This document shows positions 1,382-44,657 of a stretch of 45,251 nt of DNA, in pieces; position 1 is the stretch's first letter; every line of letters starts with the position of its first letter. The stretch comes from Escherichia phage K1E: the sequence record NC_007637.1. One strand, given 5' to 3'. The translations under genes were made by a program, and so were the position numbers. The notes beneath the pieces were generated by a model, which did no database searches, was not told where the DNA came from, and saw only the letters and a list, made by a program, of their open reading frames with translations.

Positions 1382-1592
1382 GGTTTTCTTCGAATCAGCT
1401 AGTGAAGCTATCCGCTTCCATGATGATATGATGCAAGCTGGCGTAGGTGTTGATGTGTATCACTATTTGATAGATTACGACACTGAATATCACCGAGTTA
1501 CCTTAGTATCTGAGTATGACAACCAAGTCATTACTGAGTATCTAGGTAGTGAAGATTATGATTACGATGAAGTAATCACAACAAATCTCTAA
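1368..1592 (+). CDS. Hypothetical acidic early protein (74 aa)
   Basis: Track ORF with ATG start and AAGGAGG upstream (1352..1358). Confidence 0.45.
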   Translation: MYQHEVFFESASEAIRFHDDMMQAGVGVDVYHYLIDYDTEYHRVTLVSEYDNQVITEYLGSEDYDYDEVITTNL

Positions 1593-1654
1593 ATTAACTA
1601 TTGACAGCCACGGCATACAAGGCTACATTAAGCATCAAGACGGCGACGTCTTTA

Positions 1655-1698
1655 AACATCCCGCTCTTTAACAATCTGGCTAGTGCCTTGGTAGGCTA
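1655..1698 (+). promoter_or_regulatory. Early-region repeated element, copy 2 (core GCTCTTTAACAAT, 1663..1675)
   Basis: Core followed by ctggctagtgccttggtaggc, which resembles the dyad arm of copies 3 and 4. Confidence 0.35.
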
Positions 1699-1718
1699 AC
1701 TACTTACTAAGGTGAACT

Positions 1719-1931
1719 ATGAACTACTGCGACATCGCTCACGAATTACGCATGGAACGTGAGAAACAAGAGAAGCGGATTATCAAGAAGATGGCTGTAC
1801 TGCTTGCACACTATAAGGCAGACAAACAGCCAACACATGATGAGTTCGTGGACTTCTGTAACATGTATCTTAATGTGAGTAAGGCCACTGGTTACAGATG
1901 GCTTAAAGCACTGAATGATGGAGAATTGTAG
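1719..1931 (+). CDS. Hypothetical early protein (70 aa)
   Basis: ATG 1719 preceded by AAGGTGAACT; this same ribosome-binding context recurs at 2031 and 7406. Confidence 0.5.
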   Translation: MNYCDIAHELRMEREKQEKRIIKKMAVLLAHYKADKQPTHDEFVDFCNMYLNVSKATGYRWLKALNDGEL

Positions 1932-36912: not shown

Positions 36913-37107
36913 ATGATTAACTCCGAACTGGTAGATAGTGGTGTGAAGCTTGCGCCACCTGCATTAGTCTCAGGTGGGTACTTCCTCGGTATCAGTTGGG
37001 ATAATTGGGTGTTAATAGCAACATTCATTTATACCGTGTTGCAAATTGGAGACTGGTTTTATACCAAGATTAAACTATGGAGGAAGAACCGTGAGCGTCC
37101 ACAATAA
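36913..37107 (+). CDS. Holin (T7 gp17.5-like, 64 aa)
   Basis: AAGGAGG RBS; single transmembrane segment NWVLIATFIYTVLQIGDWFYTKIKLWRK parallels T7 gp17.5 as I remember it. Confidence 0.65.
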   Translation: MINSELVDSGVKLAPPALVSGGYFLGISWDNWVLIATFIYTVLQIGDWFYTKIKLWRKNRERPQ

Positions 37108-37390
37108 ACATGCAGCTACAGAAGATGAGGTTGGCATCCTGCATGGTGCTATTACCAAAATCTTTAATAAGAAAGCACAGGCAATACTGGACACTATAGA
37201 AGAAGACCCAGATGCAGCACTGCATTTAGTCTCTGGTAAAGACATTGGAGCTATGTGTAAGTGGGTTCTTGATAATGGTATTACCGCTACACCTGCTGCA
37301 CAGCAGGAGGAGTCCAAGCTATCTAAGCGCCTCAAGGCTATCCGAGAGGCATCAAGTGGCAAGATTATTCAATTCACTAAGGAGGATTGA
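37091..37390 (+). CDS. Putative terminase small subunit (99 aa from GTG start)
   Basis: Track ORF starts at TTG 37046 inside the holin gene; proposed start is GTG 37091 with GGAGG 7 nt upstream; position matches T7 gene 18. Confidence 0.45.
   Translation: MSVHNKHAATEDEVGILHGAITKIFNKKAQAILDTIEEDPDAALHLVSGKDIGAMCKWVLDNGITATPAAQQEESKLSKRLKAIREASSGKIIQFTKED
37182..37204 (+). promoter_or_regulatory. Weak SP6-type promoter-like sequence inside coding sequence (+1 G at 37199)
   Basis: CAATACTGGACACTATAGAAGAA; perfect core with mismatches at -17 to -15. Confidence 0.4.
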
Positions 37391-38556
37391 TGGCTAAGGC
37401 AAGAGAATCACAAGCGGAGGCTCTTGCCAGATGGGAGATGCTACAGGAGTTACAGCAGACCTTTCCTTACACAGCGGAAGGTTTGCTTCTCTTTGCAGAC
37501 ACAGTTATTCATAACTTAATTGCAGGCAACCCTCATCTGATTCGTATGCAGGCTGATATCTTGAAGTTCCTATTCTACGGACACAAGTATCGCCTCATCG
37601 AAGCGCCTCGTGGTATCGCTAAGACAACACTATCAGCAATCTATACAGTATTCCGTATCATTCATGAACCGCATAAGCGTATCATGGTTGTATCCCAAAA
37701 CGCCAAGCGAGCAGAGGAAATCGCAGGTTGGGTAGTTAAAATCTTCCGTGGCCTAGACTTTCTTGAGTTTATGCTACCGGACATCTACGCAGGGGACCGT
37801 GCCTCAGTTAAGGCATTTGAGATTCATTACACCCTACGTGGCAGTGACAAGTCGCCTTCTGTGTCTTGTTACTCAATCGAAGCAGGTATGCAGGGTGCGC
37901 GTGCAGATATCATCCTAGCAGATGACGTTGAGTCAATGCAGAATGCTCGTACAGCGGCAGGACGTGCCTTGCTTGAGGAACTGACCAAGGAGTTTGAATC
38001 TATTAACCAGTTTGGTGATATTATCTACCTTGGTACTCCTCAGAACGTAAACTCTATCTACAATAACCTACCTGCTCGTGGTTACTCTGTTCGTATCTGG
38101 ACTGCACGTTATCCCTCAGTGGAGCAGGAGCAATGCTATGGTGACTTCCTTGCACCTATGATTGTGCAGGATATGAAGGACAACCCAGCACTTCGCTCAG
38201 GGTATGGCTTGGATGGCAATAGTGGTGCCCCTTGTGCACCTGAAATGTATGATGATGATGTGCTGATTGAGAAGGAAATCTCGCAGGGTGCGGCTAAGTT
38301 CCAGCTTCAGTTCATGCTTAACACTCGCATGATGGATGCTGACCGCTATCCGCTACGCCTGAACAACCTCATCTTCACTTCATTCGGTACAGAGGAAGTC
38401 CCTGTGATGCCTACGTGGAGCAATGATTCCATCAATATTATTGGCGATGCACCGAAGTATGGCAATAAGCCTACAGACTTCATGTATCGACCTGTGGCTC
38501 GCCCGTATGAATGGGGCGCTGTCACTCGTAAGATTATGTATATTGACCCTGCTGGT
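37390..38556 (+). CDS. Terminase large subunit, exon 1 (389 codons)
   Basis: ATG 37390 with AAGGAGG upstream; Walker A-like PRGIAKTT and Walker B ADIILADDVE; similarity to T7 gp19 stops at ...IDPAG, where an insertion begins. Confidence 0.85.
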
Positions 38557-39311
38557 AAACACCTCTGCCAGCGTAAAACCCTCTTAATTCGGTGGAACTC
38601 TCACTGAGACAATACCGAGCGAAGCCTGTTGCAATAACAGGAACGTGTAGAGACTAACTGTAAGGCCAAGCGGTCTGAAACAGAGGGAGGCGCAAGCCTA
38701 AGATATAGTCCGACCTACTAGGTGACTAGTAGAAGTTAAAGTAGCGAATTAACGTAACAATTGAAGGGAGTTAAATATGACAGAGCATAAAGTTTATCAT
38801 ATTCGTGTTGTTGGTGAAACTGATGTAATGCAAGGTTATATTGGTGTAACCTCCGATATTAAGAAGCGTATGAGAGAGCACAAGTGTGCAGGCCGTCTTT
38901 GTGATGGCCGCGAGTACGTTATCTTATTCACTGGTAGCAAAGAAGAGTGTTATGCACTAGAAGAGAAGCTACGCCCACATGACAACATGGGTTGGAATAA
39001 GGGTAAAGGTGGTTATCGCAAAGCAGGTAACATCGAGAAAGGTGAACGCATAAGTATTGCCACTGAAATCAAGAAAGGACAGCACTTGTCTGTTGCCACT
39101 GAGTTCAAGAAAGGCATGACACCTTACAACAAAGGTACTGGCAAAGATTACATATTCACTTCTCCAGATGGTGAAGAGTTTCTTGTAACTTGCATTACTG
39201 ACTTCTGTAAAGAGCACAACCTAACACCTCAGAATATGCGTAAGGTGGCACGTGGTTTACGTAAACACCACAAGGGTTGGCTCGCACGTCACGTTCAAAC
39301 CGGGAGGTAAG
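38557..39311 (+). mobile_element. Group I intron (candidate, self-splicing) carrying a homing endonuclease gene
   Basis: Conserved elements in canonical order: P AATTCGGTGGAA (38586..38597), Q AATACCGAGC (38611..38620), R GTAGAGACTAACTG (38647..38660), S AAGATATAGTCC (38700..38711). P1 pairing of exon GCTGGT (38551..38556) with GCCAGC (38567..38572). The 3' boundary is uncertain: G39311 or G39302. Confidence 0.75.
38777..39310 (+). CDS. GIY-YIG homing endonuclease (I-TevI-like, 177 aa) encoded within the intron
   Basis: AAGGGAG RBS; N-terminal KVYHIRVV...GYIGVTSDIKKRMREH (GIY-YIG with conserved Arg/Glu); central repeated GERISIATEIKKG / HLSVATEFKKG units; basic C-terminal DNA-binding-like region. 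Confidence 0.8.
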   Translation: MTEHKVYHIRVVGETDVMQGYIGVTSDIKKRMREHKCAGRLCDGREYVILFTGSKEECYALEEKLRPHDNMGWNKGKGGYRKAGNIEKGERISIATEIKKGQHLSVATEFKKGMTPYNKGTGKDYIFTSPDGEEFLVTCITDFCKEHNLTPQNMRKVARGLRKHHKGWLARHVQTGR

Positions 39312-40034
39312 AATGGGGATGAAACGGGTGTGGCTATCGTCTTCCTGCACGGCACATTCATTTATGTGTATCAGTGCTTTGGTGTGCCGGGAGGATACCG
39401 CGAATCGTCCCTGAATCGCATTGTGCAGGCCGCAAAGCAGGCAGGTGTTAAAGAGGTATTCATTGAAAAGAACTTTGGTCATGGCGCGTTTGAGGCCGTT
39501 ATAAAGCCATACTTTGAACGAGAGTGGCCTGTGACTCTGGAGGAAGATTACGCCACCGGACAGAAAGAGTTGCGTATCATTGAAACACTAGAGCCACTAA
39601 TGGCGGCCCACAGGCTCATCTTCAACGCAGAGATGGTCAAGTCTGATTTTGAGTCGGTACAGCACTATCCGCTTGAGCTACGCATGTCATACAGCCTTTT
39701 CAATCAAATGTCGAACATCACGATTGAGAAGAACAGCCTACGACACGATGACCGCTTAGACGCTCTGTATGGCGCTATACGGCAATTAACTTCTCAGATA
39801 GACTATGACGAGGTTACACGGATTAATCGCCTCAGAGCGCAGGAGATGCGCGATTACATCCATGCTATGAACACACCTCACCTCCGTAGGGCAATGCTCT
39901 ATGGAGATTATGGCACTGAGCGAAGAGTAACCAACACTTCCGTGGCTATGCAGCAAAGAGTATACGGTCAGAATTACAGGAGTAAATCGGCAAGCAGAAA
40001 TACACTTTCTGCAAGGATTTCAAGGACTTATTAA
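39312..40034 (+). CDS. Terminase large subunit, exon 2 (240 codons; may instead begin at 39303)
   Basis: NGDETGVAIVFLHG...EKNFGHGAFEAV...QKELRIIETLEPLMAAHRLIFN...HDDRLDAL parallels the C-terminal nuclease domain of T7 gp19. Confidence 0.85.
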   Translation, partial: NGDETGVAIVFLHGTFIYVYQCFGVPGGYRESSLNRIVQAAKQAGVKEVFIEKNFGHGAFEAVIKPYFEREWPVTLEEDYATGQKELRIIETLEPLMAAHRLIFNAEMVKSDFESVQHYPLELRMSYSLFNQMSNITIEKNSLRHDDRLDALYGAIRQLTSQIDYDEVTRINRLRAQEMRDYIHAMNTPHLRRAMLYGDYGTERRVTNTSVAMQQRVYGQNYRSKSASRNTLSARISRTY

Positions 40035-40055
40035 TTACCGGACACTATAGAAGGA
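40033..40055 (+). promoter_or_regulatory. SP6-type phage promoter (+1 G at 40050)
   Basis: AATTACCGGACACTATAGAAGGA; followed by an AT/purine-rich leader that shares AGGTTATATAGGTATT with the 6847..6986 region. Confidence 0.75.
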
Positions 40056-40198: not shown

Positions 40199-40477
40199 AT
40201 GTCTAATAGTTATAGTACACAACCTCTTACAGGTAAGTCTGCTCGTAAGCAGATACAACCTGTTAGTGAAGCCCTTATGCTTCCTGTAGTTTACGAGGAC
40301 ACTGTTGAGAAGAAAGGTGATGTTATTAATGATGCCACCAAATCAGGTAAGCAGAAAGGGGCCATGGTGTGTCTTGATACACATGATAACCTGGTTATTG
40401 CTATCGCAGTTGATGGCAAAGAAGATTCCAATTGGTTGACAGCTAATAAAGCGGTCACTACTATTACCCCAGCTTAA
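40199..40477 (+). CDS. Hypothetical protein (92 aa), paralog of the next gene
   Basis: ATG 40199 preceded by AGGA plus a (GA)9 run; shares SGKQKGAMV and overall layout with the 40490 product. Confidence 0.55.
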   Translation: MSNSYSTQPLTGKSARKQIQPVSEALMLPVVYEDTVEKKGDVINDATKSGKQKGAMVCLDTHDNLVIAIAVDGKEDSNWLTANKAVTTITPA

Positions 40478-40489
40478 GAGGAGAGTTAC

Positions 40490-40777
40490 ATGTCTAAATA
40501 TGGAACCGCAGGTACTGTTACTGGTCAGGCTTTTCGAGTAAAAACTGTACAAACCACTGCAACGGCAATCCCTTTGCCTATTGTTGCTGAAGCAGACCTT
40601 AAGAAGAAAGATCATCCTATCAACATTAAACACCTCTCTGGTAAACAGAAAGGTGCCATGGTTGCTGTAGAGAAAACAGACCAATCCTTGTACATCGCTA
40701 TTGCACGTGGGAGTGAACCCACCGACAAGTGGGATGCAACTACTATGGAGTTGGACCCTGTAACACCTGCGGCTTAA
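40490..40777 (+). CDS. Hypothetical protein (95 aa), paralog of the previous gene
   Basis: AGGAGAG RBS; shared motifs LSGKQKGAMVAV and IAIA. Confidence 0.55.
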   Translation: MSKYGTAGTVTGQAFRVKTVQTTATAIPLPIVAEADLKKKDHPINIKHLSGKQKGAMVAVEKTDQSLYIAIARGSEPTDKWDATTMELDPVTPAA

Positions 40778-40797: not shown

Positions 40798-41142
40798 GTG
40801 CTTAACAAACACTTCAAGCGCCGTGAGTTCGCTTGCCGTTGTGGGTGCGGTACATCCACAGTAGATGCTGAGTTACTACAGGTAGTCACAGATGTACGTG
40901 AGCACTTTGGTGCTCCTGTAGTTATTACTTCTGGACACCGCTGTGCTAAGCACAATGCTAATGTGGGAGGTGCTAAGAACTCCATGCATCTTACTGGTAA
41001 GGCTGCTGACATTAAGGTACAAGGTATTACACCTTACCGTGTATGGTCCTATCTAACAGCACGCTACCCCAATAAATATGGCATTGGGTCTTATCCTAAT
41101 TTCACCCACATTGATGTAAGAGAGGGATGTGCACGATGGTAA
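40798..41142 (+). CDS. Endolysin, zinc peptidase M15-like (114 aa from GTG start)
   Basis: VVITSGHRCAKHNANVGGAKNSMHLTGKAADI...FTHIDV fits the M15 zinc-binding pattern. Track ORF starts at GTG 40729 inside the upstream gene; proposed start is GTG 40798 with GAGG upstream. Confidence 0.6.
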   Translation: MLNKHFKRREFACRCGCGTSTVDAELLQVVTDVREHFGAPVVITSGHRCAKHNANVGGAKNSMHLTGKAADIKVQGITPYRVWSYLTARYPNKYGIGSYPNFTHIDVREGCARW

Positions 41143-41250
41143 GATGTATTGAATGGTGCGAGCGCATGGTTGCTCAAGCTGCCGAGGATGGCAACTATGA
41201 TGACTGGAAGAACTACTCTGACTTGTTAGCTCAATGGAAAGGGAGATGCA

Positions 41251-41400
41251 ATGAAAAAGCTGTTTAAGTCTAAGAAAGTGGTAGGTGCACTGGTTGCACT
41301 AGTGATTGCTCTTGTTTCTGTAGGTCTTGGCGTAGACCTAGGTGAAGGTGCGGAAGGTTCCGTCACTGACGTGGTATGCCAAGTAATCACCTGTGAATAA
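41251..41400 (+). CDS. Hypothetical small membrane protein (49 aa); lysis-cassette component
   Basis: ATG 41251 with GGGAG upstream; basic N-terminus followed by a hydrophobic segment; found by manual translation. Confidence 0.35.
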   Translation: MKKLFKSKKVVGALVALVIALVSVGLGVDLGEGAEGSVTDVVCQVITCE

Positions 41401-41614
41401 GGTGCTAGAGGTGGTAGCAGGTCTTATTGGCCTGCTGCTTGCCGCTAAGAAGAAGAAGGAAGAGAAGGAGGCACAAAGTGAGGCGAATCATGCTAGCGAC
41501 AATCCTGCTGATTGGTTCACTGATCACTTCAGGGTGTCAGACGGCGTTACCAGAGAATCCAAAGGTGAAGCCTCTGAAGCCGACGCTTACGGCAGTCTAC
41601 GAGGTGGACGATAA
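41393..41614 (+). CDS. Putative i-spanin (Rz-like, 73 aa); start uncertain
   Basis: GTG start; N-terminal transmembrane segment VLEVVAGLIGLLLAA followed by a charged region; overlaps the o-spanin candidate in another frame. Confidence 0.35.
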   Translation: MNKVLEVVAGLIGLLLAAKKKKEEKEAQSEANHASDNPADWFTDHFRVSDGVTRESKGEASEADAYGSLRGGR

Positions 41615-41687
41615 AGTCTGCTTCAGTAAGCCTGACGCTACAAAATTAGGTCTGTACATTCTCTCGCTAGAACGCGGGTATAATTAA
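41490..41687 (+). CDS. Putative o-spanin (Rz1-like lipoprotein, 65 aa)
   Basis: Track ORF trimmed to ATG 41490; signal peptide ending ...LITSGC (lipobox-like) followed by Pro-rich PENPKVKPLKP; overlaps the i-spanin candidate. Confidence 0.5.
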   Translation: MLATILLIGSLITSGCQTALPENPKVKPLKPTLTAVYEVDDKVCFSKPDATKLGLYILSLERGYN

Positions 41688-41716: not shown

Positions 41717-41739
41717 ATTTACTGGACACTATAGAAGAG
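41717..41739 (+). promoter_or_regulatory. SP6-type phage promoter upstream of the tailspike region (+1 G at 41734)
   Basis: ATTTACTGGACACTATAGAAGAG; perfect core. Confidence 0.8.
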
Positions 41740-42221: not shown

Positions 42222-44657
42222 ATGATTCAAAGACTAGGTTCTTCATTAGTTAAATTCAAGAGTAAAATAGCAGGTGCAATCTGGCGTAACTTGGATGACA
42301 AGCTCACCGAGGTTGTATCGCTTAAAGATTTTGGAGCCAAAGGTGATGGTAAGACAAACGACCAAGATGCAGTAAATGCAGCGATGGCTTCAGGTAAGAG
42401 AATTGACGGTGCTGGTGCTACTTACAAAGTATCATCTTTACCTGATATGGAGCGATTCTATAACACCCGCTTCGTATGGGAACGTTTAGCAGGTCAACCT
42501 CTTTACTATGTGAGTAAAGGTTTTATCAATGGTGAACTCTATAAAATCACGGATAACCCTTATTACAATGCTTGGCCTCAAGACAAAGCGTTTGTATATG
42601 AGAACGTGATATATGCACCTTACATGGGTAGCGACCGTCATGGTGTTAGTCGTCTGCATGTATCATGGGTTAAGTCTGGTGACGATGGTCAAACATGGTC
42701 TACTCCAGAGTGGTTAACTGATATGCATCCAGATTACCCTACAGTGAACTATCATTGTATGAGTATGGGTGTATGTCGCAACCGTCTGTTTGCCATGATT
42801 GAAACACGTACTTTAGCCAAGAACGAACTAACCAATTGTGCATTGTGGGATCGCCCTATGTCTCGTAGTCTGCATCTTACTGGTGGTATCACTAAGGCTG
42901 CAAATCAGAGATATGCAACAATCCATGTACCTGATCACGGACTCTTCGTTGGTGATTTTGTTAACTTCTCTAACTCTGCGGTAACAGGTGTATCTGGTGA
43001 TATGAAGGTTGCAACAGTAATAGATAAGGACAACTTCACGGTTCTTACACCTAACCAGCAGACTTCAGATTTGAATAACGCTGGAAAGAATTGGCACATG
43101 GGTACTTCTTTCCATAAGTCTCCGTGGCGTAAGACAGATCTTGGTCTAATCCCTCGTGTCACAGAGGTGCATAGCTTTGCTACTATTGATAACAATGGCT
43201 TTGTTATGGGCTATCATCAAGGTGATGTAGCTCCACGAGAAGTTGGGCTTTTCTACTTCCCTGATGCTTTCAATAGCCCATCTAATTATGTTCGTCGTCA
43301 GATACCATCTGAGTATGAACCAGATGCGGCAGAGCCATGCATCAAGTACTATGACGGTGTATTATACCTTATCACTCGTGGTACTCGTGGCGACCGACTA
43401 GGAAGCTCTCTGCATCGTAGTAGAGATATAGGTCAGACTTGGGAGTCACTAAGATTTCCACATAATGTGCATCATACTACTTTACCGTTTGCTAAGGTAG
43501 GAGATGACCTTATTATGTTTGGTTCAGAACGTGCAGAAAATGAATGGGAAGCAGGTGCACCAGATGATCGTTACAAGGCATCTTATCCTCGTACCTTCTA
43601 TGCACGATTGAATGTAAACAATTGGAATGCAGATGATATTGAATGGGTTAACATCACAGACCAAATCTATCAGGGTGACATTGTGAACTCTAGTGTAGGT
43701 GTAGGTTCTGTTGTAGTTAAAGACAGCTTCATTTACTATATCTTTGGTGGTGAAAACCATTTCAACCCAATGACTTATGGTGACAACAAAGACAAAGACC
43801 CATTTAAAGGTCATGGACACCCTACTGATATATACTGCTATAAGATGCAGATTGCAAATGACAATCGTGTATCTCGTAAGTTTACATATGGTGCAACTCC
43901 AGGTCAAGCTATACCTACTTTCATGGGTACTGATGGAATACGAAATATCCCTGCACCTTTGTATTTCTCAGATAACATTGTTACAGAGGATACTAAAGTT
44001 GGACACTTAACACTTAAAGCAAGCACAAGTGCCAATATACGATCTGAAATGCAGATGGAAGGTGAGTATGGCTTTATTGGCAAGTCTGTTCCAAAGGACA
44101 AACCAACAGGTCAACGTTTGATTATTTGTGGTGGAGAAAGGACTTCATCATCTTCAGGTGCACAGATAACTTTGCACGGTTCTAATTCAAGTAAGGCTAA
44201 GCGTATCACTTATAACGGAAACGAGCACCTATTCCAAGGTGCACCAATCATGCCTGCTGTAGATAACCAGTTTGCTGCTGGTGGACCTAGTAACCGATTC
44301 ACTACCATCTACCTAGGCAGTGACCCTGTTACAACTTCAGATGCTGACCACAAGTACGGTATCTCTAGTATTAATACCAAGGTGTTAAAGGCTTGGAGCA
44401 GGGTTGGTTTTAAACAGTATGGTTTGAATAGTGAAGCAGAGAGGAACCTTGATAGCATACACTTCGGTGTCTTGGCTCAGGATATTGTAGCTGCTTTTGA
44501 AGCTGAAGGGTTGGATGCCATTAAGTATGGAATTGTGTCCTTCGAAGAAGGTAGGTATGGTGTGAGATATAGTGAAGTTCTAATCCTAGAGGCTGCCTAT
44601 ACTCGCCATCGTCTTGATAAATTAGAGGAGATGTATGCCACTAATAAAATCAGTTAA
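42222..44657 (+). CDS. Tailspike endosialidase (endo-N-acetylneuraminidase) with C-terminal intramolecular chaperone domain (811 aa)
   Basis: AAGGAGG RBS; sialidase Asp-boxes SGDDGQTW and SRDIGQTW; C-terminal region (about 44300..44657) resembles tailspike chaperone (S74-type) domains; overall sequence recognised from memory as K1-phage endosialidase. Confidence 0.8.
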   Translation: MIQRLGSSLVKFKSKIAGAIWRNLDDKLTEVVSLKDFGAKGDGKTNDQDAVNAAMASGKRIDGAGATYKVSSLPDMERFYNTRFVWERLAGQPLYYVSKGFINGELYKITDNPYYNAWPQDKAFVYENVIYAPYMGSDRHGVSRLHVSWVKSGDDGQTWSTPEWLTDMHPDYPTVNYHCMSMGVCRNRLFAMIETRTLAKNELTNCALWDRPMSRSLHLTGGITKAANQRYATIHVPDHGLFVGDFVNFSNSAVTGVSGDMKVATVIDKDNFTVLTPNQQTSDLNNAGKNWHMGTSFHKSPWRKTDLGLIPRVTEVHSFATIDNNGFVMGYHQGDVAPREVGLFYFPDAFNSPSNYVRRQIPSEYEPDAAEPCIKYYDGVLYLITRGTRGDRLGSSLHRSRDIGQTWESLRFPHNVHHTTLPFAKVGDDLIMFGSERAENEWEAGAPDDRYKASYPRTFYARLNVNNWNADDIEWVNITDQIYQGDIVNSSVGVGSVVVKDSFIYYIFGGENHFNPMTYGDNKDKDPFKGHGHPTDIYCYKMQIANDNRVSRKFTYGATPGQAIPTFMGTDGIRNIPAPLYFSDNIVTEDTKVGHLTLKASTSANIRSEMQMEGEYGFIGKSVPKDKPTGQRLIICGGERTSSSSGAQITLHGSNSSKAKRITYNGNEHLFQGAPIMPAVDNQFAAGGPSNRFTTIYLGSDPVTTSDADHKYGISSINTKVLKAWSRVGFKQYGLNSEAERNLDSIHFGVLAQDIVAAFEAEGLDAIKYGIVSFEEGRYGVRYSEVLILEAAYTRHRLDKLEEMYATNKIS

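Follow-up and report, generated by a model that had tools for sequence, protein, structure and literature searches.

How does coliphage K1E breach the outer membrane at lysis, and which of the small genes behind its endolysin gene take part? The window analysed here is the 45,251-base K1E genome (NC_007637); all coordinates refer to it unless another record is named, and the lysis genes and promoter cores described all lie on its plus strand. An original prediction, made from the letters of this DNA, had described near the right end a cassette with an M15-type endolysin followed by overlapping spanin-like genes, the holin lying elsewhere. The reading that we favour, with a probability of roughly 55%, is that lysis relies on a T7-type holin, a cytoplasmic M15 endolysin and an overlapped pair that would breach the outer membrane, the pair being a 73-amino-acid (aa) protein, here called x (41393..41614), and an Rz1-like lipoprotein (41478..41687), while a 49-aa membrane protein (41251..41400) would act as a separate lysis factor. 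The overlapping spanin-like pair of the original prediction is supported by the assignment of the lipoprotein to PHROG 8971 and its listing as an outer-membrane spanin (o-spanin) in the spanin census of Kongari et al. (2018, PMC6139136, supplementary tables), and by x being a genuine gene that is co-inherited with the lipoprotein and overlaps it across divergent phages.

Selection on x and extent of its family

The 73-aa open reading frame (ORF) x at 41393..41614 belongs to PHROG 9219, a family of "unknown function" to which all 42 scanned members of the x family were assigned. In its product a long helix at the N-terminus is followed by a DPxxWFxxHF motif and by an acidic tail free of constraint. 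All 34 module-bearing loci collected first keep the frame of x open. The ratio of nonsynonymous to synonymous differences (pN/pS) was obtained as pooled Nei-Gojobori estimates on 26 distinct SP6-like sequences. Over x codons 4-28, where no other gene overlaps, pN/pS was 0.31 in the frame of x versus 1.75 and 2.48 in the other frames; over codons 33-53, which lie across the lipoprotein signal peptide, it was 0.22 versus 1.02 in the lipoprotein frame. At the other end of the overlap the last 36 codons of the lipoprotein gave 0.12, and the tail frame of x over the 12 overlapped codons among them gave 1.6, which indicates no constraint. Constraint on either gene is thus paired with relaxation of its neighbour, the pattern that two genuine overlapping genes should produce.

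A profile search of the x family, started from 12 diverse members (E-value cut-off E <= 1e-3, clusters at 50% identity), retrieved 270 clusters, almost all of them 58-92 aa long. They follow the consensus LLxxLxxLxxL…KxEQxxAQxExDxIxxDPAxWFxxHFNG, after which comes a variable acidic tail. A word-index homologue search with x returned close relatives only, none of them named.

We also considered that x might be a chance open frame produced by the composition of the overlapping lipoprotein gene. The ORF is indeed left out of the K1-5 record and of the RefSeq records of the close relatives vB_EcoP_B and SHAK7163, and no Shine-Dalgarno sequence was found upstream of its start in the SP6-like relatives. 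Against a chance origin stand the frame-specific purifying selection, which includes 25 codons without any overlapping gene, and the 270 homologous clusters of constant size. Moreover, x is a free-standing gene in Vibrio phage PVP-XSN, where it follows an amidase gene and a membrane-protein gene, and it was annotated independently in the SP6 RefSeq record (gp48), in three Klebsiella phage records and in Erwinia phage VL73. We therefore give the chance origin next to no credence and regard it as refuted by the frame-specific selection and the 270-cluster family; on this comparative evidence x is a real gene.

In all SP6-like loci the start codon of x, a GTG, is contained in the codons for Cys, Glu and stop that end the 49-aa gene (TGTGAATAA, 41393..41400). 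Together with the missing Shine-Dalgarno sequence, this position suggests that x is translated by termination-reinitiation coupled to the stop of the 49-aa gene.

The lipoprotein gene and its overlap with x

The ORF at 41478..41687 encodes a 69-aa precursor of a predicted outer-membrane lipoprotein of the Rz1-like o-spanin type, to which PHROG 8971, the census entry PK1Ep59 and a lipobox all point. It matches PHROG 8971 ("Rz-like spanin") with E 3e-39. The precursor begins with MRRIMLATILLIGSLITSG, directly followed by CQ, so that the lipobox reads LITSG/C. In the mature protein of 50 aa, four prolines lie within the first 16 residues and a cysteine lies in the sequence KVCF, and the conserved C-terminal domain ends with ...YILSLERGYN.

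The original prediction had drawn this gene as 41490..41687. Its reading frame different from that of x, its lipobox and its Pro-rich mature region were found as described, while the start codon is more likely the GTG at 41478. In 28 of 28 SP6-like loci a start codon (GTG in 26, ATG in 2) stands at the position that corresponds to 41478, with AAGGAGG (AGGGAGG in one) located 6 nucleotides (nt) upstream, whereas the codon at 41490 is TGG in SP6 and not ATG. Furthermore, a start at 41478 supplies the signal peptide with a basic n-region (MRRI). The sequence comparison thus places the lipoprotein start probably at GTG 41478, 12 nt before the ATG at 41490. The lipobox is kept in all 46 lipoprotein homologues, with Q, G, S, A, V or K as the +2 residue. 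Asp at +2 after the lipidated Cys occurs in none of these 46 homologues, which fits outer-membrane sorting.

The lipoprotein ORF lies in the +1 frame and its stop is located 73 nt past the end of x. Because the lipoprotein gene runs beyond x, the pair is overlapped as originally predicted, and an embedded architecture was rejected. A unimolecular spanin of the T1 gp11 type was rejected as well, since the lipoprotein ends with ...LGLYILSLERGYN and carries no C-terminal hydrophobic span.

All 46 loci with x also carry a homologue of the PHROG 8971 lipoprotein, and in 45 of them the two genes overlap out of frame, by 89-221 nt. The non-overlapping exception is PVP-XSN, in which the lipoprotein gene lies 780 nt from x, beyond a reverse-strand gene. 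Eight distant metagenomic contigs each have an out-of-frame lipobox ORF over x that ends in Y-I/L-x-x-L-E-R. In all eight of these contexts the automatic gene calls kept x and missed the overlapping lipoprotein ORF, which looks like a systematic blind spot of gene callers for out-of-frame overlapping genes. All lipoproteins scanned, namely seven of the eight distant ones and that of PVP-XSN, matched PHROG 8971. The neighbours of the pair vary: the nearby endolysin is an M15 peptidase, an Amidase_3 or a Phage_lysozyme protein, and the gene just upstream of x encodes a member of the 49-aa family (PHROG 4712), of PHROG 9685 or of Phage_holin_10, or a 59-aa protein with two hydrophobic segments.

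An out-of-frame overlap that recurs across divergent loci is the architecture that defines overlapped two-component spanins, and it thus supports the overlapped reading for K1E. In overlapped spanins of the P2 LysB/LysC type (PMC6139136), the lipoprotein gene starts inside its upstream partner in another frame and runs beyond it, and the same is found in K1E. The K1E pair also resembles overlapped two-component spanins in its place in a lysis cassette after the endolysin gene and in its short, proline-rich lipoprotein with a periplasmic cysteine.

It is very unlikely, in our judgement, that the lipoprotein, with or without x, serves a purpose outside lysis, for instance superinfection exclusion or receptor masking in the manner of T5 Llp or Cor, the outer membrane being breached otherwise. 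Such a role would be in keeping with the literature search, which found no functional study of the K1E, K1-5 or SP6 lysis genes. The census curators judged the periplasmic lengths "too short", and in PVP-XSN the lipoprotein gene adjoins an integrase gene, apart from x. These points are opposed by the location of the pair near an endolysin gene, a holin-like gene or both in SP6-like phages and in most distant contexts examined. In addition, the small and large terminase genes of K1E abut, the former with its end at 37390 and the latter with its start at 37387, so the site of the T7 Rz/Rz1 genes 18.5/18.7 is empty in K1E and a replacement would be expected elsewhere.

Structure models of the lipoprotein with its candidate partners

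As x and the 49-aa protein are both candidates for the partner of the lipoprotein, each was modelled with it. Models were computed by AlphaFold2 on single-chain fusions with paired alignments, a design that yields no inter-chain error estimate and so weakens the support that the models can give to x. The x-linker-lipoprotein fusion reached a predicted local distance difference test score (pLDDT) of 70.5 and a predicted template modelling score (pTM) of 0.51, with x residues 38-55 confident. In this model x forms helices at residues 2-36 and 38-46 and a strand at 52-55, and the C-terminal domain of the lipoprotein has a pLDDT of 88-92. The only other strands in the model are those of the lipoprotein hairpin, so the x strand 52-55 must pair with this hairpin. 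The DPxxWFxxHF(R/N)(V/G) segment of x is thus predicted to add a strand to the C-terminal beta-hairpin-plus-helix domain of the lipoprotein.

The 49-aa-linker-lipoprotein fusion gave a pLDDT of 61.8 and a pTM of 0.35, with a pLDDT of 43-50 in the tail of the 49-aa protein. Hence the fusion models, which are weak evidence, favour x and not the 49-aa protein as the partner that binds the lipoprotein. When the x-lipoprotein fusion model was compared with the PDB by Foldseek, no hit reached E <= 0.001. Taking the models together with the conserved gene overlap, we rank x first among the candidate partners of the lipoprotein, as an overlapped protein similar to an inner-membrane spanin (i-spanin).

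The 49-aa membrane protein as an alternative partner

Several properties of the 49-aa protein, the census itself and the topology of x treated in the next section weigh against x in this role. The small membrane ORF that had been noticed downstream of the endolysin gene is the 49-aa bitopic membrane protein at 41251..41400, which matches PHROG 4712 (E 1.4e-26) and is called "holin" by RefSeq and PHROGs and "i-spanin" by Kongari et al. (2018). It has a basic N-terminus, a strong hydrophobic span of 19 residues and a 21-residue tail ending in a conserved CxxxxC. The Eisenberg mean hydrophobicity (<H>) of the span is 0.85 without any charge, and five K/R precede the span and none follows it. Consequently, the 49-aa protein has a textbook span and a charge pattern that predicts an N-in/C-out orientation. 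The gene is under purifying selection as well (pN/pS 0.24).

The census lists for K1E PK1Ep58 at 41250 (0-based)..41400 and PK1Ep59 at 41477 (0-based)..41687, and their protein sequences are identical to those of the window ORFs 41251..41400 and 41478..41687. It pairs the 49-aa protein with the lipoprotein as a "separated" spanin in K1E, K1-5 and SP6 (PMC6139136). This assignment would make the 49-aa protein the i-spanin, the lipoprotein the o-spanin, and x an accessory or an unrelated lysis regulator. Besides the listing in three phages, the same label in the updated SP6 record AY288927.2 and the predicted N-in/C-out span, it is favoured by the two conserved cysteines, which would be periplasmic. 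It is also favoured by vibriophage ICP3, in which a homologue of the 49-aa protein (PHROG 4712, E 7e-23) and an adjacent, different lipoprotein take the place of Rz/Rz1 at the T7 18.5/18.7 position, which lies between genes 18 and 19.

The census assignment nevertheless appears unlikely to us. The periplasmic part of the 49-aa protein comprises 21 residues only, which is too little for a periplasmic domain able to reach and bind an o-spanin, and the curators themselves annotated the K1E, K1-5 and SP6 pairs with "too small?" and "too short" (PMC6139136). The 49-aa family is present in all T7-supergroup loci and in one further contig (L045), whereas it is missing from 7 of the 46 x-lipoprotein loci, all of them distant, in which its slot is taken by PHROG 9685, Phage_holin_10 or the 59-aa protein with two segments. 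Its tail is of low confidence in the fusion model, and the constant overlap of the x and lipoprotein genes is left unexplained.

The census is also divided on this point. For UAB_Phi78 it gives the x homologue as the overlapped i-spanin of the same lipoprotein, and it flags this o-spanin family as spanning two architectures (PMC6139136). As K1E, K1-5, SP6 and UAB_Phi78 possess the same three genes in the same arrangement, the discrepancy is one of assignment and not of biology. The record AY288927.2 calls the 49-aa gene "i-spanin" and puts "o-spanin" on the x-frame ORF 39607..39804, whereas the true lipoprotein frame in that record is 39683..39880; the "o-spanin" label therefore appears to sit in the wrong frame.

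In ICP3/VP4 the homologue of the 49-aa protein has 47 aa and the lipoprotein gene follows it directly, an order that recalls K1E. However, the 65-aa lipoprotein belongs to the unrelated family PHROG 10167, and the pair lies between the terminase genes and not after the endolysin gene. No x-like ORF was found at the ICP3 18.5/18.7 locus. In our collection the 49-aa homologue and the 65-aa lipoprotein of ICP3 are carried at 1465..1805 of locus L049.

A further possibility, and in our view quite an unlikely one, is a three-part system in which the 49-aa protein would be the inner-membrane anchor, x the connector and the lipoprotein the outer-membrane end, all three being needed. The three genes are contiguous, translationally coupled and under purifying selection, and in all SP6-like loci the GTG of x falls within the end of the 49-aa coding sequence. 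A gene for a small membrane protein precedes x in every context, its stop overlapping or abutting the x start, and neither x nor the 49-aa protein alone resembles a complete i-spanin. Yet the upstream partner is not one family (PHROG 4712, PHROG 9685, Phage_holin_10 and others) and the predicted topologies differ; ICP3 has the 49-aa family without x; a contact between the 49-aa protein and x is unsupported by evidence; and it is not obvious how x would cross the inner membrane.

PHROG 9685, one of the families upstream of x, is an "unknown" single-span family found in L040, L041, L048 and L037, and its members end with ...ILDRLGFNPDxSKARKPK. The metagenomic contig L048 carries, besides its PHROG 9685 gene, another gene with weak matches to holin families, and PHROG 9685 may therefore not be the holin itself. 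The 157-aa protein P0176 (L050/L051, 214..687) was considered as a natural fusion of a PHROG 9685 protein to x and was rejected, because the two genes are separated by an in-frame TAG, which the gene caller had read through.

The place of the 49-aa gene is held in other phages by genes for small membrane or holin proteins of unrelated families. In the reading that pairs x with the lipoprotein, the 49-aa protein most probably acts in lysis on its own account, as a membrane factor that resembles a holin or antiholin or that serves as an inner-membrane anchor. If its "holin" label is followed, the K1E cassette may hold a second holin-like gene.

Membrane topology of x

The second group of objections to x concerns its membrane span. 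Spans were judged by the length of uncharged runs together with Eisenberg <H> and hydrophobic moment. Kyte-Doolittle and Hessa-type 19-residue sums were set aside because true spans were not separated by them, and T7 gp18.5 scored poorly. The longest uncharged run of x is 12 residues in K1E, with a family median of 9, compared with 23 in lambda Rz and 19 in T7 gp18.5. The original prediction was correct that an ORF exists at 41393..41614, which the selection data now establish as a gene, while its description as transmembrane-containing was generous in view of this 12-residue run. The <H> of K1E x is 0.58. Across the family the best 18-residue window has a median <H> of 0.43 and a median moment of 0.44 and holds about 1.6 K/R and 1.1 D/E, whereas proven spans show <H> of 0.75-0.85 and moments of 0.04-0.14 without charges. 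By these sequence measures the N-terminal helix of x is amphipathic across the family and not a canonical membrane span.

The charge distribution points in the same direction. There are 3.7 K/R in the 12 residues after the helix versus 0.26 before it, and by the positive-inside rule such basic residues argue against the N-in/C-out orientation that an i-spanin needs. In the UAB_Phi78 homologue of x, the census accepted a span called by TMHMM and listed no predicted coiled coil (Kongari 2018, PMC6139136). The combined periplasmic lengths of x and the lipoprotein also look too short to span the periplasm. In these respects the K1E pair differs from overlapped spanins such as P2 LysB/LysC: the x-family partner has only 58-92 aa and a weakly hydrophobic, amphipathic N-terminal helix, a coiled coil is not predicted, basic residues directly follow the helix, and the two periplasmic parts add up to at most about 100 residues.

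These features suggest another, tentative reading, which we place on the unlikely side. Here x would be an amphipathic cytoplasmic or peripheral protein and would either be holin-gated, meeting the lipoprotein after holin opening, or serve as the connector of a three-part spanin anchored by the upstream membrane protein. If true, it would explain why the curated i-/o-spanin pairs of K1E, SP6 and ICP3 look too short for the periplasm. We still prefer the overlapped x-lipoprotein pair as the device that would breach the outer membrane.

Endolysin, holin and the proposed course of lysis

The endolysin gene, at 40798..41142 with a GTG start, encodes a 114-aa zinc peptidase of family M15. The product matches Pfam PF08291 (Peptidase_M15_3) with E 5.5e-33 and 113.8 bits (cutoff 23.2) over model positions 1-108 of 108, and also PHROG 894 "endolysin". 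This profile search agrees with the proposal that the enzyme is of the M15 type and not an amidase like that of T7. The M15 catalytic residues, which had been part of that proposal, are present as the zinc motif HxxxxxxD…H, consisting of H64-x6-D71 and H104 (in FTHID, read from the sequence). H64-x6-D71 aligns to SRHMYGHAAD, the zinc-site region of PDB 1lbu, and a PDB sequence search with the endolysin gave as its only match a 38-residue stretch with similarity to this entry (endolysin residues 36-73, E 2e-4).

The HxxxxxxD…H signature is common to the K1E enzyme, the zinc D-Ala-D-Ala carboxypeptidase of Streptomyces albus (1lbu) and the T5 L-alanyl-D-glutamate peptidase, and the match to the Pfam M15 clan is full length. 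Unlike 1lbu and T5-type M15 enzymes, the K1E endolysin is a 114-aa catalytic core only and has no cell-wall-binding domain. A signal peptide, a signal-arrest-release (SAR) segment or any other hydrophobic N-terminal segment was not found in the endolysin, whose N-terminus MLNKHFKRREFACRCG is hydrophilic. A SAR endolysin with a pinholin was rejected on this ground, and the same absence suggests that the enzyme is cytoplasmic and would depend on a holin.

The holin candidate is a 64-aa protein of the T7 gp17.5 family at 36913..37107. It matches Pfam PF10746 (Phage_holin_2_2) with E 3.2e-27 and 94.4 bits (cutoff 25.4) as well as PHROG 920 "holin", and it has one hydrophobic segment with a 17-residue uncharged run. 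Its neighbours are a Phage_T7_tail gene (gp17-like, T7 tail-fibre N-domain) and a DNA_Packaging_2 gene (gp18-like small terminase), so that the T7 order 17 - 17.5 - 18 is kept around it. The original prediction had placed a gp17.5-like holin at 36913, some 4 kb away from the cassette, and both the profile match and the T7-like order agree with it. The lysis genes of K1E are thus split over two sites, with the holin 3.7 kb upstream of the right-end cassette.

T7 and K1E share the T7-supergroup gene order, and T7 gp17.5 is homologous to the K1E holin and is likewise encoded after the tail-fibre-like gene and before the gene for the small terminase subunit. The two phages differ in the remaining lysis genes. 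The T7 endolysin is the gp3.5 amidase (T7 lysozyme), whereas that of K1E is an M15 zinc peptidase encoded at the right end of the genome; T7 gp18.5/gp18.7 are embedded Rz/Rz1 genes, whereas the K1E spanin candidates are unrelated to them in sequence and overlapped, not embedded.

From these features we infer the following course of lysis. The holin, made with the structural genes, would permeabilise the inner membrane at a programmed time. Its opening would release the signal-less M15 endolysin from the cytoplasm, which would then cut the peptidoglycan cross-links. Finally, the outer membrane would be breached by the Rz1-like lipoprotein together with x.

Genomic setting and neighbouring genes

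The nearest records in the phage collection are K1-specific Vectrevirus phages with 94-99% identity. The window contains 13 exact matches to SP6-type phage promoter cores, against 1.35 expected, and an endosialidase gene at 42222..44657; together with the T7-supergroup gene order, these features fit its identity as K1E. One exact promoter core, GACACTATAGAAG at 40041..40053, heads the transcription unit with the cassette, and its use for the lysis genes is inferred from position. The next exact core, at 41725..41737, marks where the cassette ends and where the unit for the tailspike adaptor and the endosialidase begins.

A conserved 43-aa ORF at 41136..41267, which the earlier description of the cassette did not include, overlaps the endolysin stop (ATGGTAA) and encodes a soluble protein with a CxxxC motif (PHROG 1312, E 2e-18). 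Its pN/pS is 0.22 in its own frame versus 1.1-1.2 in the others, and homologues occur in Edwardsiella phage and Vibrio JSF38 loci. No Pfam family was matched by this protein, the 49-aa protein, x or the lipoprotein.

Just upstream of the endolysin gene, 40199..40477 and 40490..40777 are tandem paralogous genes (37% identity, E 1e-14). PHROG 2725 and RefSeq name them "acetyl-CoA acetyltransferase", and no Pfam match was found for them. In Klebsiella phage Kp7 the genes at this position bear the name "minor capsid protein", with an Ig domain noted for one of these, and the acetyltransferase label looks unreliable. The large terminase gene (37387..40034) is split, with a group I intron inside it at 38525..38732 (Rfam RF00028, 63.6 bits, E 1.5e-15). 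The 177-aa ORF at 38777..39310 after the intron has weak GIY-YIG and NUMOD-like matches and probably encodes a homing endonuclease.

Implications

The K1E cassette is the known lysis apparatus of a published phage and of a kind already catalogued. It is textbook in itself, and the useful part of the analysis is the annotation problem that it exposes: the three small genes are labelled incompatibly across RefSeq, PHROG-based pipelines, the updated SP6 record and the spanin census. Therapy research makes use of K1-specific phages from this group, so correct names for their lysis genes matter. Beyond K1E, x and the lipoprotein form a widespread and very small Rz/Rz1-like module, the putative inner partner of which has no clear membrane span. 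An understanding of the mechanism of this pair would put to the test the view that a spanin has to bridge the periplasm physically.

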